A DNA stretch of 64,000 bases from an uncultured delta proteobacterium (GTDB lineage Bacteria > Desulfobacterota > Binatia > UBA9968): assembly GCA_963760795.1 (NCBI GenBank), contig CAVXEP010000012.1, positions 64,001-128,000 on the forward strand, written 5' to 3'. Positions within the stretch are counted from its first letter, which is position 1. Each line of letters opens with the position of its first letter. The notes beneath the pieces were generated by a model. That model ran no database searches. It was not told the DNA's origin and saw only the letters and a program-made list of their open reading frames with translations. Made by a program: the position numbers and the translations under genes. Positions 51,530 through 55,521 of the stretch are shown here, piece after piece.

Positions 51530-52375
51530 TCATCGTCGCGGCACCGAGCGAGTCAGCGAGCGATCGAAAACACCCGGGTTAAAGTCTTCCGTTTCCAAGC
51601 TCACATCGAAGACGATCGCCCGCTGTCCCTGAAGAATCATCAGTTCGCCGCGTGGACTGGCGAGAAAATTGAAGCCGCCGTAGGAAACCAATCCATCCGG
51701 CATGCTCACGCCGAAACCTTCGGGATGGGGCGGCAGGACTTGCAGCGGCCGGCCGTTGAAAAAGCCAAGTACGTTGCGCTGCTTTTTCCAGCGCATAACC
51801 CCATCATCGTCCGTCGCGCGGTCGCCCGCGCCAGGCTCGAGATGTTCCGCGGTATGGTAGAGGGCGACGAGCTTAGGCTCACGCAGGAGCGCGACCGGCA
51901 ATTGCGCGGAAGAGAGTGTGCTGTACTTAGCAGCCCAGACATCGGCTGGCACCGCCAGATGGGCATGATCGGCATCGAGCGGGAATAGGTAGCGCGCGGC
52001 GCCGATGTCGAGCATGTCCTTCAGATGGCGCATGACTTCGTTGACAAACTGGCAAGGCACCCGCACTGGTACCCCGCGATAGGTCGCGGCAAAATCAGCT
52101 TTGCCGGTCATACAGCTAAAAGCTGGCAATGGGTTGCGCATCCGGCCGCCATAGTTCTCTTGATATTGATAGGCGGCGCCGATCTCGGCCGCGGAAAAAT
52201 ACCAGGGATCGCGGGAAGACTGGGCGGCCGCACTCGTCACGCCAAGGACCACGGCCGTGCCGGCGCAGCTGAGCAACCTGCCCCAAGACTTAGCCGCGTT
52301 TGTCATCCCAGTTTTGTGCTGCTGGGTCTTGCTGGGCGGGTTTGGGAATTGACTGGAAACTTTATCTTTGTTCAT
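51530..52375 (-). CDS. Hypothetical secreted protein
   Basis: 281-aa ORF with a hydrophobic signal ending AAA-Q; DADHAH and LYHTAEH His motifs; no family recognised. Confidence 0.7.
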   Translation of the reverse strand: MNKDKVSSQFPNPPSKTQQHKTGMTNAAKSWGRLLSCAGTAVVLGVTSAAAQSSRDPWYFSAAEIGAAYQYQENYGGRMRNPLPAFSCMTGKADFAATYRGVPVRVPCQFVNEVMRHLKDMLDIGAARYLFPLDADHAHLAVPADVWAAKYSTLSSAQLPVALLREPKLVALYHTAEHLEPGAGDRATDDDGVMRWKKQRNVLGFFNGRPLQVLPPHPEGFGVSMPDGLVSYGGFNFLASPRGELMILQGQRAIVFDVSLETEDFNPGVFDRSLTRSVPRR

Positions 52376-52402
52376 GGCTTCACGTCGCTAACCGTTGGTT
52401 GC

Positions 52403-52471
52403 AAACAAAAATGGCGCTTAACCCCGTATGAGGAATCAGGCGCCATTGCCATAGTCGCGGGCGTCAGCGTC
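52403..52471 (-). promoter_or_regulatory. Second candidate ANTAR leader (P1/P2 + terminator)
   Basis: P2 GGC-AAUGGC-GCC overlaps terminator AUGGCGC..GCGCCAU-UUUUGUUU; P1 GAC-GCUGAC-GCC is imperfect. Confidence 0.6.
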
Positions 52472-52493
52472 GAAACCCGGACCGTTCTTCTCG

Positions 52494-52521
52494 CGCCTGC
52501 GGCGCCTCGGCGCCGCAGGCG
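52494..52521. repeat. Perfect 13-bp GC palindrome
   Basis: CGCCTGCGGCGCC-TC-GGCGCCGCAGGCG. Confidence 0.85.
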
Positions 52522-52552
52522 AAAATATGTTTACCAACCTTTTCTTAGTTGC

Positions 52553-53323
52553 TTACAACACCGTCCCTGCCATTGCGTCGGAATACTCATGCGCATTCTG
52601 ATAAAAGATATCGACCTTCTCGTTGTTCTTTGTTTCCAGCAACAGTTGCGCGTTGGCGACCGCGCGATCAATGTCTTCGATCGGCGTCGCCGAAACTCGC
52701 CCATGACCGGGGTAGAGCGCCTTCAGAGTGAAACTGCGCAGCCGCGCCAGCGAGTCGAGGTAGTCGCCGATACTACCGCTCTCAGCGATGTAGGAGAGCG
52801 TGCCGCCGGCGAAAACGCTGTCCGCCGAAAACAGTAAACCGCAGCTGGATTCGATGATCGAAATGCAGCCGGAAGTGTGGCCCGGCGTGTGAAAGACGCG
52901 CAGCGTATAGTTGCCCAAATCGATGCGCGTCATATTTTCCAGCCACAGATGCACCCGCATCGGCGGTTCGTTGAGGTCGTTGCCCTTGTACATGGTCACG
53001 TAGTAGTCGCCGGTGGTCATCTTCGACGCGGCTAAACGATAGGCTGCGATCATCGCGGTTTCCTGAAAATAACGATTGGCGCCAATATGATCGCAATGCT
53101 CGTGCGAGTTGATGACCAGGTTGACGTCGCGCACCTTCATGCCGATATGGCGCAAGCCGCGCTCCAGCACCGGAAAGTTTTGATCCGAACCGGTGTCAAT
53201 CATAACGTTCATGTAATCGCCCTTGATCACGTAACTATGACTGCTGCCCTTGCGGCCGCGAATCTGAAAAATCCCCGGGTTCAGTTCGTTCACCGCGTCA
53301 TAGATCTGCGCCATTGCTTTCAA
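52553..53323 (-). CDS. MBL-fold metallo-hydrolase
   Basis: IDTG, SHEHCDH, HTPGHT, PGHG. Confidence 0.92.
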   Translation of the reverse strand: MKAMAQIYDAVNELNPGIFQIRGRKGSSHSYVIKGDYMNVMIDTGSDQNFPVLERGLRHIGMKVRDVNLVINSHEHCDHIGANRYFQETAMIAAYRLAASKMTTGDYYVTMYKGNDLNEPPMRVHLWLENMTRIDLGNYTLRVFHTPGHTSGCISIIESSCGLLFSADSVFAGGTLSYIAESGSIGDYLDSLARLRSFTLKALYPGHGRVSATPIEDIDRAVANAQLLLETKNNEKVDIFYQNAHEYSDAMAGTVL

Positions 53324-53673
53324 TGCCTTCCTGCCATCATGGCTGCTTCGAGATCATCGAAGATTTCAAACCGTTCGGCGAAACGATCGTCGTGAAAATA
53401 TCCCTTCAGTTCCGGATTGAGATGGCACAGCCTTAGCACCCCGACACGTTGATCGACTTCGCGTTTGAACGATATCAGCACGCCCACTTCCCACACGCCG
53501 AACTGCTCGAGTTGCTTTAGGTTGACGATGACTCGAATTCCCTGGCGCGTGAGCCAGCGTCGAAACAAATATCGCACCCGCAGCGGTTCATTGTTTTCAG
53601 CTTTTCCCGACGGCGTCACGATCACCCAACCAGAAACTTCGGTAAGGCGATATTGCACCGGTGTTAATTCCAT
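53320..53673 (-). CDS. STAS/anti-sigma-antagonist-like protein, 117 aa
   Basis: VIVTPSG, RVIVNLKQL, GVLRLCHLNP, FEIFDDLEAA; ATG at 53673 preferred over the ORF-track start. Confidence 0.75.
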   Translation of the reverse strand: MELTPVQYRLTEVSGWVIVTPSGKAENNEPLRVRYLFRRWLTRQGIRVIVNLKQLEQFGVWEVGVLISFKREVDQRVGVLRLCHLNPELKGYFHDDRFAERFEIFDDLEAAMMAGRH

Positions 53674-53858
53674 AGCGGCCAGTCTTTCCGCCGGCGCCGG
53701 CTGGCGCGAACGATGTAGGCCGGCGCAAGCTCGAAACAGCGCGCCATCTCCAGCACCGGCAATGGCGGGATATCTTTGTCCGCCAGGTCGCCAAAGACAT
53801 CGGCGAGAAAAATAATGTTGTCGAAGATCTTCTCGGTTGCCGACTTCTTCGTGTTCAT
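53664..53858 (-). CDS. Small hypothetical protein, 64 aa
   Basis: GGAGG RBS right after the leader terminator; overlaps the STAS start by 10 nt. Confidence 0.65.
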   Translation of the reverse strand: MNTKKSATEKIFDNIIFLADVFGDLADKDIPPLPVLEMARCFELAPAYIVRASRRRRKDWPLWN

Positions 53859-53871
53859 TTTCTTGCCCTCC

Positions 53872-53936
53872 AAAAAAAAGGCGCTCCACCGGATCACCGG
53901 TGAGCGCCATTGCTCAACCCAGGGCAACATCGCCCT
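53872..53936 (-). promoter_or_regulatory. ANTAR-target dual-hairpin leader with intrinsic terminator
   Basis: P1 AGGGC-GAUGUU-GCCCU, P2 UGAGC-AAUGGC-GCUCA, terminator GGCGCUCACCGG-UGAU-CCGGUGGAGCGCC-U8 overlapping P2. Confidence 0.88.
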
Positions 53937-53951
53937 CGCTTACTTAACAAC

Positions 53952-53966
53952 GCAACGGCTGTGCCA
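53952..53966 (-). promoter_or_regulatory. sigma54 promoter (cassette)
   Basis: TGGCACAGCCGTTGC, exact consensus. Confidence 0.85.
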
Positions 53967-54027
53967 CTTGCCAGCAAGCGGAAAGGATAGCGATATCATG
54001 ACGTTTTAATATTCTGTTAATATTGAC

Positions 54028-54066
54028 CGCCTGTTCAATAGACACGAGCTGCCTAAACTACCAGCA
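54028..54066. promoter_or_regulatory. Paired NtrC-like enhancer boxes
   Basis: CGCCTGTTCAATAGACA and TGCCTAAACTACCAGCA, 22 bp apart. Confidence 0.5.
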
Positions 54067-54190
54067 ACCGGTAGCCATGAAGCTGCAAAAGATATTTCAC
54101 CACGGAGGAACAACCACCGGAGATCGGTCAAGATTAGACAGCGGGCTAAAACATTACGTTTTCGCGATGAATTCCGATAGGTTCTAGATC

Positions 54191-54778
54191 TTAAGGATTG
54201 CTCTCGGTGAGCAGTCCGCCGGCAAGTAAGATCGCCTGGGCGATGTCCGACATCGGCTTGCGCATGTTCATGCTGGCCTTTTTCATCAGTGAATAGGCAC
54301 GTTCTTCAGACAGATGGCGCTGCTCCATCAACAAGCCTTTGGCACGCTCAATTAACTTCCGTTCTTCGAGATTTAACTTGAGCGTGGAAACTTCTTCACG
54401 CAGGGAGGTAAATTCATGAAAGCGGCTGACGGCGAGCTCGATCGCCGGCGCGAGCTCCTCGACGCGCAGGGGTTTGACCAGATAACTCATCACGCCGGCA
54501 TTAGTCGCGCGCGCCACGGTCGAAGGATCGGCATGACTTGTAATCAGCACGATCGGCAGCGGACTGGTCTTCATGATCTCGTGCGCTGCTTCAATACCAT
54601 CGAGATCCGCCAACCCGACGGCCATAACGAGAACTTCAGCGCCGGAAGCCTGCGATAGCGCCAACGCGACCTTCCCACTCGCCCCCTCGGCAGCGATTAG
54701 ATAACCGCTGCAACGCAAACTTTCGACCAGTTGGCGGCGCGATGGGTCGTGATCGTCGATAACCAGGACCTTCTTCAT
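54191..54778 (-). CDS. ANTAR-domain regulator with pseudo-receiver (Asp53->Ala)
   Basis: Receiver fold N-terminus with [35 protein letters not shown]. Confidence 0.93.
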
Positions 54779-55521
54779 AGTGAAATCATCCCGCCGTCCG
54801 CTTTGCGGCTTTTCGAGCGAGCGATGCGCCGGAGAAACTCGGAGAGGAATCGCTCGCCGTAGTACTTGAGCGCCGGCGCATGGTTTTGCGTATCGGCCAT
54901 GATCTTGTCCGGCTGGACGTAGGGGGACAGCGCCAGGTCTTTGGAGCGCTCATCGAGCCAGCGTTCGATCATGCGCGGAGTCACCTCGAGATGAAATTGC
55001 AAGCCGTAAATAGTCTTGCCAAGGCGAAATGCCTGGGTGCGATAGTGCTGCGACGACGCCAGCAAAATCGCCCCAGCTGGCAGCTCGAAGCCGTCGCCAT
55101 GCCACTGGAACACCGTCGCATTCTCCGGCAGATAGCCGAGTAAGGAATCGACTTGGCCATGGGGTGTGATCGAAATCGGACTCCAGCCGATCTCTTTAAC
55201 CGCACCGTGAAACACCGCAGCGCCGAGCGTCGTGGCAATCAACTGCGCGCCCAAACAAATTCCAAGAACCGGCACCGCTTCATCGATGGCGGCGCGAATG
55301 ATGCGCTTTTCCCAGCGTAGAATCGGAAAGCCGGTTTCGTCGTCGACGTTCATCGGCCCGCCGAGAATGATCAGCGCTTTGACCTGTTCCCAGTTCTCCT
55401 CAGGCATTTCACCGTGGAATAAGCGGACCACACGATAGGCGGCGTGCTGTTTTTCAAGAACTTCGGCGAAGAATCCCAAATCTTCGAATGGGTCATGCTG
55501 AAAGACAACGACCTCACTCAT
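54775..55521 (-). CDS. Class I glutamine amidotransferase (GuaA-N-like), 248 aa
   Basis: LGGPMNV, GICLGAQ, FQWHGD, LQFHLE; own ATG at 55521. Confidence 0.9.

Follow-up and report, generated by a model that had tools for sequence, protein, structure and literature searches.

How could a bacterium subject a set of genes to both nitrogen limitation and transcription attenuation, and what could switch its antiterminator protein when the receiver domain of that protein has lost the residue normally phosphorylated? These questions are raised by a locus in the genome of an uncultured soil bacterium, contained in a stretch of 64 kb (hereafter the window, meaning that whole stretch), in which all genes of interest lie on the minus strand. 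Here, a nitrogen cluster headed by glnB, amtB and glnA ends in the genes of a class-I glutamine amidotransferase (GATase) and of an ANTAR antiterminator protein, and is followed by a sigma-54 promoter, an attenuator (leader 1), three tightly packed genes, another attenuator (leader 2) and the gene of a predicted secreted protein. It is likely that the locus is the regulatory head of a nitrogen- and nitrate-assimilation cluster. An initial annotation of the window had described the arrangement from glnA onwards as a cassette gated by both sigma-54 and an ANTAR protein, and every element on its list was recovered on the minus strand, in its expected place or directly beside it. The elements on which the argument turns are the following.

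54775-55521, minus strand: class-I GATase, PRK07053-like (PF00117, E 5.9e-20).
54191-54778, minus strand: REC-ANTAR antiterminator protein, with a receiver (REC) and an ANTAR domain (PF00072, E 1.2e-19; PF03861, E 3.2e-20).
54039-54055, minus strand: near-palindrome TAGGCA-N5-TGTCTA, a candidate site for an enhancer-binding protein (EBP), with one mismatch to the idealised palindrome.
53952-53966, minus strand: sigma-54 promoter of the attenuated operon, exact TGGCAC-N5-TTGC.
53921-53936, minus strand: P1 hairpin of leader 1, 5-bp stem, hexaloop GATGTT.
53901-53916, minus strand: P2 hairpin of leader 1, 5-bp stem, hexaloop AATGGC.
53872-53908, minus strand: intrinsic terminator of leader 1, 12-bp stem with one bulge, then T8.
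53664-53858, minus strand: open reading frame (ORF) of 64 amino acids (aa), no known family, with a GGAGG ribosome-binding site; the first gene past leader 1.
53320-53670, minus strand: STAS-domain protein (PF01740, 24.8 bits against a cut-off of 22.6).
52553-53311, minus strand: cytoplasmic metallo-beta-lactamase-fold (MBL) protein (PF00753, E 1.6e-27; HxHxDH motif).
52404-52483, minus strand: leader 2, with a P1-like hairpin (loop GACGCT), P2 (GGC-AATGGC-GCC) and a terminator with a T-run.
51530-52375, minus strand: 281-aa predicted secreted protein, N-terminal hydrophobic segment, no Pfam or NCBIfam match.

The 260 nucleotides (nt) that separate the ANTAR gene from the 64-aa ORF hold the promoter and leader 1, and leader 2 lies in the 178 nt between the MBL gene and the gene of the 281-aa protein. 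Both leaders have the layout of ANTAR substrates, with two hexaloop hairpins, the second of which overlaps an intrinsic terminator. In leader 1, the loop and the 3' arm of P2 are used again in the 5' arm of the terminator, and because of these shared bases ANTAR binding would block the formation of the terminator. The terminator of leader 2 overlaps its P2 likewise, and the loop of that hairpin, AATGGC, is identical to the one in leader 1. An excerpt of Ramesh et al. 2012 (PMC3369931) gives the substrate rule as hexaloops with A at position 1 and G at position 4; P2 of both leaders fits it in full, and the P1 loops GATGTT and GACGCT fit it at G4 only. Leader 1 folds with a minimum free energy of -43.2 kcal/mol (z -4.57) and leader 2 with a z of -4.28, and in neither case was any of 200 shuffles as good. 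The dual-hairpin terminator leader that had been proposed is borne out, and so is the second, ANTAR-like leader, which has the same loop type and a terminator of its own. A simple terminator scan had missed both terminators, one of which has a bulged stem and the other a long loop.

Leader 1 was aligned in seven loci with a mean column identity of 80%; the promoter hexamers, P2 and the terminator are nearly invariant, and the unconstrained loop positions are variable. The overlap between P2 and the terminator is conserved across these loci; 96.5% of the cells of P1 and the terminator are paired, against 36-56% when the partners are slid, and the terminator by itself reaches 98.8%, with one compensatory change from C-G to U-A in two loci. 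Wider searches added five further orthologous leaders (L018, L093, L098, L099 and L101) and leaders of the same type in other lineages, and 30 leader-like places with the GnfR/ANTAR motif were found in loci carrying ANTAR genes. A covariance model of leader 1 built on eight orthologues proved too narrow: it returned 12 leader-1 orthologues (E at most 1.6e-06) and missed leader 2 and the distant leaders as full matches. Between lineages the P1 stems are unrelated in sequence, and their hexaloop always has G as its fourth base and A or G as its first; this statement comes from a list of hairpins, an alignment of 25 leaders by MAFFT having misplaced the 3' arms of P1. Five of the eight same-genus loci contain leader 2, in which 3 of 43 pairs covary. 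In one locus (L173:834-2685) three ANTAR-type attenuators stand in series, two before the small ORF, STAS and MBL genes and one directly before nirA.

Zero-mismatch copies of TGGCAC-N5-TTGC occur at only two sites in the window, at 53952-53966, where a sigma-54 promoter had been predicted, and before glnB. A -24/-12 element is found 52-54 nt before the P2 core in all 12 orthologous leaders, and the genome carries rpoN together with approximately 26 full-length EBP genes, none of which exceeds the ntrC cut-off. What had been annotated as enhancer boxes was reduced to a single site, the near-palindrome at 54039-54055, which lies approximately 75-90 nt upstream of the -24 element and within a block that is kept in the same-genus loci.

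The protein expected to act on these leaders is the single ANTAR match of the whole genome, and its ANTAR domain scores 72.1 bits against a gathering cut-off of 27.3 (PF03861). The phospho-acceptor position of its receiver, at the end of beta-3, is occupied by Ala, both in the window and in all 11 relatives with the order GATase-then-ANTAR, and by Asp in the four aligned relatives in which the ANTAR gene precedes the GATase gene. The two N-terminal Asp, the Thr/Ser and the Lys of the receiver are retained, so that the acceptor Asp alone is lost, and with it the residue by which a response regulator is recognized. The claim of a pseudo-receiver that cannot be phosphorylated at the usual Asp thus holds for the window and for these 11 relatives. 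In 80 other ANTAR loci, the acceptor is Asp in 73 and Ala in seven; all seven Ala-type loci are in glnA/glnB/amtB clusters, in metagenome-assembled genomes (MAGs) labelled delta proteobacterium/Deltaproteobacteria, Methylomirabilota, Methylomirabilales, Candidatus Rokubacteria, Candidatus Acidiferrales and Patescibacteria group. Together with the relatives described here, these seven of 80 surveyed loci define a clade of nitrogen-cluster ANTAR regulators without phospho-Asp. Over the full length, the nearest solved structures are those of Rv1626 (1s8n, E 1.2e-38) and 6wsh (E 2.5e-31).

With Ala at the acceptor position, the activity of the ANTAR protein must be set by how much of it is present, by a partner or ligand bound to it, or by the two together. 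To our knowledge, the switching of a pseudo-receiver is known only for AmiR, by AmiC, and for NasT, by NasS. Neither partner type is present at this locus, where the recurrent neighbor is a glutamine amidotransferase. Among the ORFs of the cluster, Pfam searches revealed no NasS-, AmiC-, NIT- or kinase-type sensor gene near the ANTAR gene, and they revealed no partner gene shared by the other Ala-type loci among 10 flanking ORFs, some of which are probably spurious.

From the observed elements, their conservation and synteny, and the families to which the proteins belong, we infer dependence on sigma-54 and an EBP, antitermination by this ANTAR protein and a feed-forward logic. Under nitrogen limitation, an NtrC/GnfM-like EBP would activate the sigma-54 promoters before glnB, the attenuated operon, nirA and a porin gene. 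The transcript starting from the promoter at 53952-53966 would stop at the intrinsic terminator within approximately 80 nt, and termination would be avoided only if the single ANTAR protein bound the hexaloop hairpins P1 and P2. The second attenuator, with the same loops, would gate the genes past MBL. As the ANTAR gene ends the sigma-54-driven glnB-amtB-glnA-GATase cluster, the whole would work as a feed-forward cascade like that from GnfM to GnfR in Geobacter. Reading this arrangement as an AND-type gate is reasonable. The AND gate suggested earlier combined nitrogen starvation with a second signal independent of phosphorylation; its architecture of promoter plus attenuator and its non-phosphorylatable receiver are found here, and the second signal itself is plausible.

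The other features of the cluster, from the upstream to the downstream end of the minus-strand series, are listed below.

59213-59227, minus strand: sigma-54 promoter of the glnB-amtB-glnA(-GATase-ANTAR) cluster, zero-mismatch TGGCAC-N5-TTGC, approximately 70 nt before the glnB ATG.
58805-59143, minus strand: glnB (PII; PF00543, E 6.4e-34), start codon from sequence reading.
57150-58760, minus strand: amtB ammonium transporter (PF00909, E 3.7e-122).
55602-57018, minus strand: glnA, glutamine synthetase type I (Gln-synt_C, E 5.5e-134), with a one-base indel in the assembly.
55545-55592, minus strand: strong hairpin and T-run 3' of glnA, terminator-like by sequence reading.
52494-52521, minus strand: conserved 12-bp hairpin without T-run directly 3' of the MBL gene, with compensatory changes at two pairs (5 loci).
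47677-51407, minus strand: TctC-like protein, two NMT1/SsuA-like periplasmic binding proteins and a universal stress protein (Pfam, NCBIfam).
47432-47446, minus strand: sigma-54-type promoter directly before nirA, GGCAT-N5-TTGC, without an ANTAR leader.
39462-47412, minus strand: nirA (with a Rieske domain), nrtA, nrtB, nrtC, nrtD and the assimilatory nitrate reductase gene nasA (Pfam, NCBIfam).

The series is closed by the porin gene, which follows the nitrate reductase gene. The sigma-54-type promoter of nirA lies approximately 32 nt before its start and is conserved in six loci, being equidistant from the nirA ATG in the window, L010, L011, L012, L013 and L099. Upstream of it, at 47560-47600, there are two copies of the palindrome AAGCGCTT, 9 nt apart, and the pair could be a regulator site. 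A one-mismatch sigma-54-type element, TGGCAT-N5-TTGC, is found at 39169-39183 before the porin gene, which is OmpL-like; several relatives likewise have a porin gene behind their GATase or ANTAR-GATase genes. Twelve tRNA genes, the only RNA families that passed the Rfam gathering scan of the window, are arranged in three groups at 5550-20457, in its first third.

Comparison with related loci links the switch to nitrate assimilation. The order glnA-GATase-ANTAR-leader-small ORF-STAS-MBL is complete in 6 of 7 fetched same-genus loci, the seventh being cut by the end of its contig. In L018 and L098, nirA-nrtABCD(-nasA) comes within 20-40 nt after the promoter, the leader and the small ORF, and STAS and MBL genes are absent; in L099 only remnants of these two are left. 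The MBL gene abuts nirA in L015 and L093, and in L173 an ANTAR-type leader stands directly before nirA. Four loci without an ANTAR gene (L095, L096, L097 and L100) show the order glnB-amtB-GATase-porin or a similar one and have neither the small ORF nor nirA. The co-occurrence of the ANTAR gene, the leader, the small ORF and nirA therefore indicates one nitrate/nitrite-assimilation module with an antitermination switch. In the genome analyzed here, extra genes lie between leader 2 and nirA, and since nirA has its own leaderless sigma-54 promoter, the direct ANTAR targets would be the small ORF, STAS, MBL, secreted-protein and binding-protein genes. To that extent the targets are, as the initial annotation put it, unlike the known nitrate ones; its account left out the nirA-nrtABCD-nasA cluster, which lies downstream on the same strand and which in relatives is itself preceded by the leader. 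In one further locus (L016:8880-9300) a globin-like ORF, apparently frameshifted, takes the place of nirA 3' of the MBL gene.

Several points weigh against this reading. Pairs of leader 1 changed on both sides number 2 of 17, a count reached in 82 of 500 shuffles, and the P2 stem shows no variation, and hence no covariation, in the seven loci; covariation is thin because the relatives are close. Of the synteny and covariation check that accompanied the original proposal, the first half came out clearly, with cassette and leaders conserved across relatives, and the second yielded scarce compensatory change. The P1 loop starts with G where A is canonical, both in the window and in its nearest relatives; A is found at this position in more distant orthologues. 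The near-palindrome is not significant alone, as 74 of 100 shuffles contain at least one match. With nirA under a promoter of its own here, the link between the ANTAR protein and nitrate rests on the relatives. Finally, the ANTAR gene, the small ORF, STAS and MBL are all represented in contigs of two metatranscriptome studies, as is 52161-52499, a stretch that bridges the leader-2 terminator into the next gene; such RNA-library contigs may include DNA and cannot show starts, ends, strand or transcription. For the same libraries, gaps in cover carry no weight, whether over the leader-1 terminator (X17, 53829-53907) or over 53493-54218 (X16). Another RNA-library contig, which spans 53908-54394 and thus runs from inside the 3' end of the ANTAR gene through the promoter to P2, would suit an account without any ANTAR regulation, in which the hairpin and T-run near 53872 terminate the upstream glnA-GATase-ANTAR transcript and the hexaloops are incidental. 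However, a conserved sigma-54 promoter stands upstream of this terminator, the operon has a second site with P1, P2 and the GnfR/ANTAR motif, the same elements return at the 30 leader-like places in ANTAR loci, and chance sites elsewhere in the genome lie inside coding sequence; we regard that account as very improbable. A switch of the NasT type is a further alternative. In such a switch a sensor, for example the 64-aa or the STAS protein, would hold the ANTAR protein inactive until nitrate or nitrite appears, which agrees with the leader heading nirA-nrtABCD-nasA in relatives and with the usual pairing of ammonium repression and nitrate induction in nas operons (excerpt of PMC10783516). In 13 of 13 loci (12 aligned ones and a divergent copy in L173) the ANTAR gene comes with the small ORF, which is absent from four close loci without that gene, yet this co-occurrence is expected anyway of the first gene of the target operon, and the structure model of the small ORF is of low confidence. 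Moreover, no NasS-like or NIT-domain gene adjoins the ANTAR gene, and the NMT1-family genes of the window, 4-5 kb away, encode proteins with signal peptides. Control of this kind is, in our estimation, decidedly unlikely.

Another candidate for switching the Ala-type antiterminator is its neighbor. The stop codon of the GATase gene overlaps the start codon of the ANTAR gene (ATGA), and the two are translationally coupled. The GATase matches NF005458 with an E of 3.2e-65, under the cut-off of that model, and in 15 GATase sequences Cys89, His177 and Glu179 are invariant; we take these to be the positions of the class-I Cys-His-Glu triad. A search for longer relatives of the ANTAR protein gave as its best match a natural 452-aa REC-ANTAR-GATase protein (P0189), which aligns end to end with 45% identity to the ANTAR protein and 41% to the GATase of the window. 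The 452-aa form came from two sources and belongs to a cluster of three, in which a 192-aa member suggests that the two genes are separate elsewhere. The opposite order, with an ANTAR gene of the Asp type before the GATase gene, occurs in seven loci of other deltaproteobacterial-type MAGs; five of these (L020, L104, L137, L180 and L181) have downstream a leader with the same P2 core, preceded in L020, L104 and L137 by a sigma-54 element, and the genes behind these leaders include porin- or amtB/glnB-like ones. Prediction of an ANTAR-GATase complex gave weak support, with a median interface score (ipSAE) of 0.34 (runs 0.44, 0.34 and 0.30) against 0.00 for the best of three controls, a contact agreement of at least 94% between runs and a partner pLDDT (the model's local confidence) of at least 87. 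In calibration, 58 of 80 solved complexes attained the ipSAE mark, as did 2 of 110 mismatched pairs, and those reaching it at 0.60 or below were 7 of the 80 solved complexes and both passing mismatches; because our prediction used its own 15-row alignments, these counts hold roughly.

The GATase could thus be the sensor partner of the ANTAR protein, as AmiC is for AmiR and NasS for NasT, and read-through would then follow intracellular glutamine in addition to sigma-54. The overlap of stop and start codons, the adjacency of the two genes in 11 aligned Binatia-type loci and, in reverse order, in the seven loci of other lineages, the natural fusion P0189 and the weak pass of the complex prediction all point in this direction. 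On the other hand, an ANTAR neighbor is found in 10 of the 80 closest GATase loci, and approximately 28 of the 80 are in glnB/amtB/glnA clusters, so the adjacency may reflect no more than shared membership of a nitrogen regulon. In the close relatives L096, L097 and L100 there is a GATase and no ANTAR gene, and 5 of 7 other Ala-type ANTAR loci lack a GATase. The intact triad is what would be expected of a working GATase enzyme, the fusion is of the Asp-bearing type, comes from one cluster and could be due to a lost stop codon, and a weak pass is, by the calibration of the tool, wrong in more cases than not unless the pairing was likely to begin with. No link between a GATase and an ANTAR protein was found in the literature searched. 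We therefore offer the GATase as sensor partner as a tentative possibility, and the more specific version, in which it switches the Ala-type antiterminator as an intracellular glutamine sensor with the 64-aa protein as a second player, as a doubtful one. If true, it would provide a new route by which nitrogen status reaches transcription attenuation directly, and a physical GATase-ANTAR link would mean a new sensor class for riboregulators.

The genes behind the attenuators are tightly packed as far as MBL, with the start of STAS overlapping the stop of the small ORF. The 64-aa ORF, aligned in 12 loci with 55-97% identity, falls into 68 database clusters, all of them unnamed, and has no Pfam family; its AlphaFold2 (AF2) model, a weak one (pLDDT 65.7), shows two helices, and a search of the Atlas provided no lead (best score 0.76). 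The STAS protein is only just over the cut-off of PF01740 and matches TIGR00377 with an E of 4.3e-07, under the cut-off. The MBL protein has the Lactamase_B fold, with the HxHxDH metal motif read in its translation, and among solved chains it is closest to the subclass B3 enzyme Blr6230/BJP-1 (E 3.9e-16). Of 41 related genomes, the window's own included, 9 have the MBL gene; all 9 are of one genus, in which 8 of the other 24 genomes carry it. The unknown secreted protein named in the initial annotation corresponds to the 281-aa ORF, whose family comprises at least 279 clusters, likewise unnamed, with invariant Cys, His, Asp and Glu positions (e.g., D134, H137, H139, H174, E177 and H178); judging by these residues, the protein may bind metal. 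Its AF2 model (pLDDT 75.6) had no match in Foldseek against the PDB at an E of 0.001 or below, and a wide VIA-align search gave no convincing fold match (best Z 4.5), which does not make the fold a new one. The genes of the small ORF, the STAS-MBL pair and the secreted protein are conserved, would be nitrogen-regulated and have no assigned function.

Scans of the genome for the P2 core, for the core with a T-run filter and for a full descriptor yielded no credible leader beyond the two in the window. The bare P2 core has 147 matches where approximately 40 are expected, and this excess is due to a dispersed repeat that inflates the matches. That repeat has CGCAAAGGCGC(A/C)AAG-like units in tandem, close to where short conserved elements end (e.g., at C2:211556, C5:140862 and C7:156953). 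With the T-run filter there were 23 places, of which only the two window leaders are credible; a site on C29 was rejected as a leader because it lies inside a 350-aa ORF. The descriptor scan gave 21 relaxed sites and nine with longer stems, and leader 1 alone was compact and intergenic-looking; leader 2 escaped it owing to an internal mismatch in P1. The chance leader-like sites in the rest of the genome lie within coding sequence.

Two irregularities of the assembly concern genes of the cluster. An ORF of 747 aa that had been taken for a glnA-GATase fusion is most likely an artefact: it results from one extra base at a CTTAAG site (55641-55645) that is shared with the assembly of the nearest relative and is absent from every covering contig in runs X1, X5 and X16 (two DNA and one RNA-library). 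The true C-terminus of glnA lies in another frame, glnA is intact in L011, L012 and L016, and several other genes in related assemblies are split likewise; the extra base probably reflects a systematic error of assembly. An alternative, programmed +1 frameshifting at the CTT-AAG of glnA, was considered and dropped, as the base is missing from all covering contigs of the three runs. One RNA-library contig (X16 record 15) spans the hairpin after glnA, which is no proof of transcription. The assimilatory nitrate reductase gene (39462-41629) is divided into two overlapping ORFs, 39962-41629 and 39463-39987, which may be due to another indel.

The closest known counterparts of this locus are nitrogen systems in which sigma-54 control is joined with an ANTAR protein. 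As given in excerpts of PMC12591593, Klebsiella nasF combines an NtrC/sigma-54 promoter with NasR antitermination at two leader hairpins, and nas clusters are under double control by NtrBC/RpoN and NasST (PMC5424462; excerpt of PMC10783516). In Geobacter sulfurreducens, the EBP GnfM activates RpoN promoters, that of gnfR included, and GnfR relieves the leader terminators of a subset of these genes; its target motif, CAGGCAANGGCGCC, overlaps the terminator (Ueki and Lovley 2010, excerpt of PMC2995071). Leader 2 reads ATGGCAATGGCGCC and fits 12 of the 13 specified positions of CAGGCAANGGCGCC, leader 1 fits 9 of the 13, and at the GCAANGGCGC core both leaders match all 9 specified positions. An excerpt of PMC3369931 also notes ANTAR substrates before genes for PII, an ammonium transporter, a nitrate/nitrite transporter and nitrite reductase. 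The statement that the module was not recognized as described thus does not hold as far as its design is concerned.

The likeness to GnfL/GnfM-GnfK/GnfR is close. The excerpt of PMC2995071 describes RpoN promoters with a nitrogen EBP, an ANTAR gene under the same control, nitrogen targets and leaders in which a conserved GGCAANGGCGCC-type element overlaps an intrinsic terminator, all as in our locus. There, however, GnfR is phosphorylated by the kinase GnfK and its targets are nif, glnK and amtB (same excerpt), while here the acceptor is Ala, the cluster has no kinase gene, and the predicted targets comprise the small ORF, STAS, MBL and, among relatives, nirA-nrt-nasA. The scan with Asp-type ANTAR proteins retrieved no Geobacter locus; the likeness to GnfR is one of design and motif. 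A literature search for the gnfR neighborhood (GSU2822 and three adjacent tags) found no paper on it, judged by titles and the beginnings of abstracts. NasR of Klebsiella oxytoca, acting on nasF, likewise joins an NtrC/sigma-54 promoter with ANTAR antitermination of nitrate assimilation (excerpt of PMC12591593), but it senses nitrate through a NIT domain, whereas the N-terminal domain here is Response_reg and the alignment to the NasR structure 4akk is confined to the ANTAR domain. The NasS-NasT systems of Paracoccus, Azotobacter and Pseudomonas share the REC-ANTAR protein, leader hexaloops (with A1 and G4 in the nas leaders, fitted in full here by P2) and NtrBC/RpoN control; they differ in that here a GATase is the neighbor, no NrtA-like cytoplasmic NasS is adjacent, and nirA has its own promoter.

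AmiC-AmiR of Pseudomonas aeruginosa is alike in its unphosphorylated receiver-like domain, and AmiR is controlled by its partner (excerpt of PMC2995071); in contrast, our locus has no gene for an AmiC-type binding protein and no amidase target, and its receiver has lost the acceptor Asp alone. The structural relatives Rv1626/PdtaR (1s8n) and EutV (6wsh) both have Asp at the acceptor position, where the protein of the window has Ala. PdtaR, with PdtaS, and EutV, with EutW and ethanolamine, are kinase-partnered regulators with other targets. Since the sigma-54 and ANTAR design for nitrogen genes is established, the locus opens no new category. It extends this design into an abundant uncultured soil lineage, and what is new here is the phosphorylation-dead receiver, the candidate GATase partner and the uncharacterized cargo.

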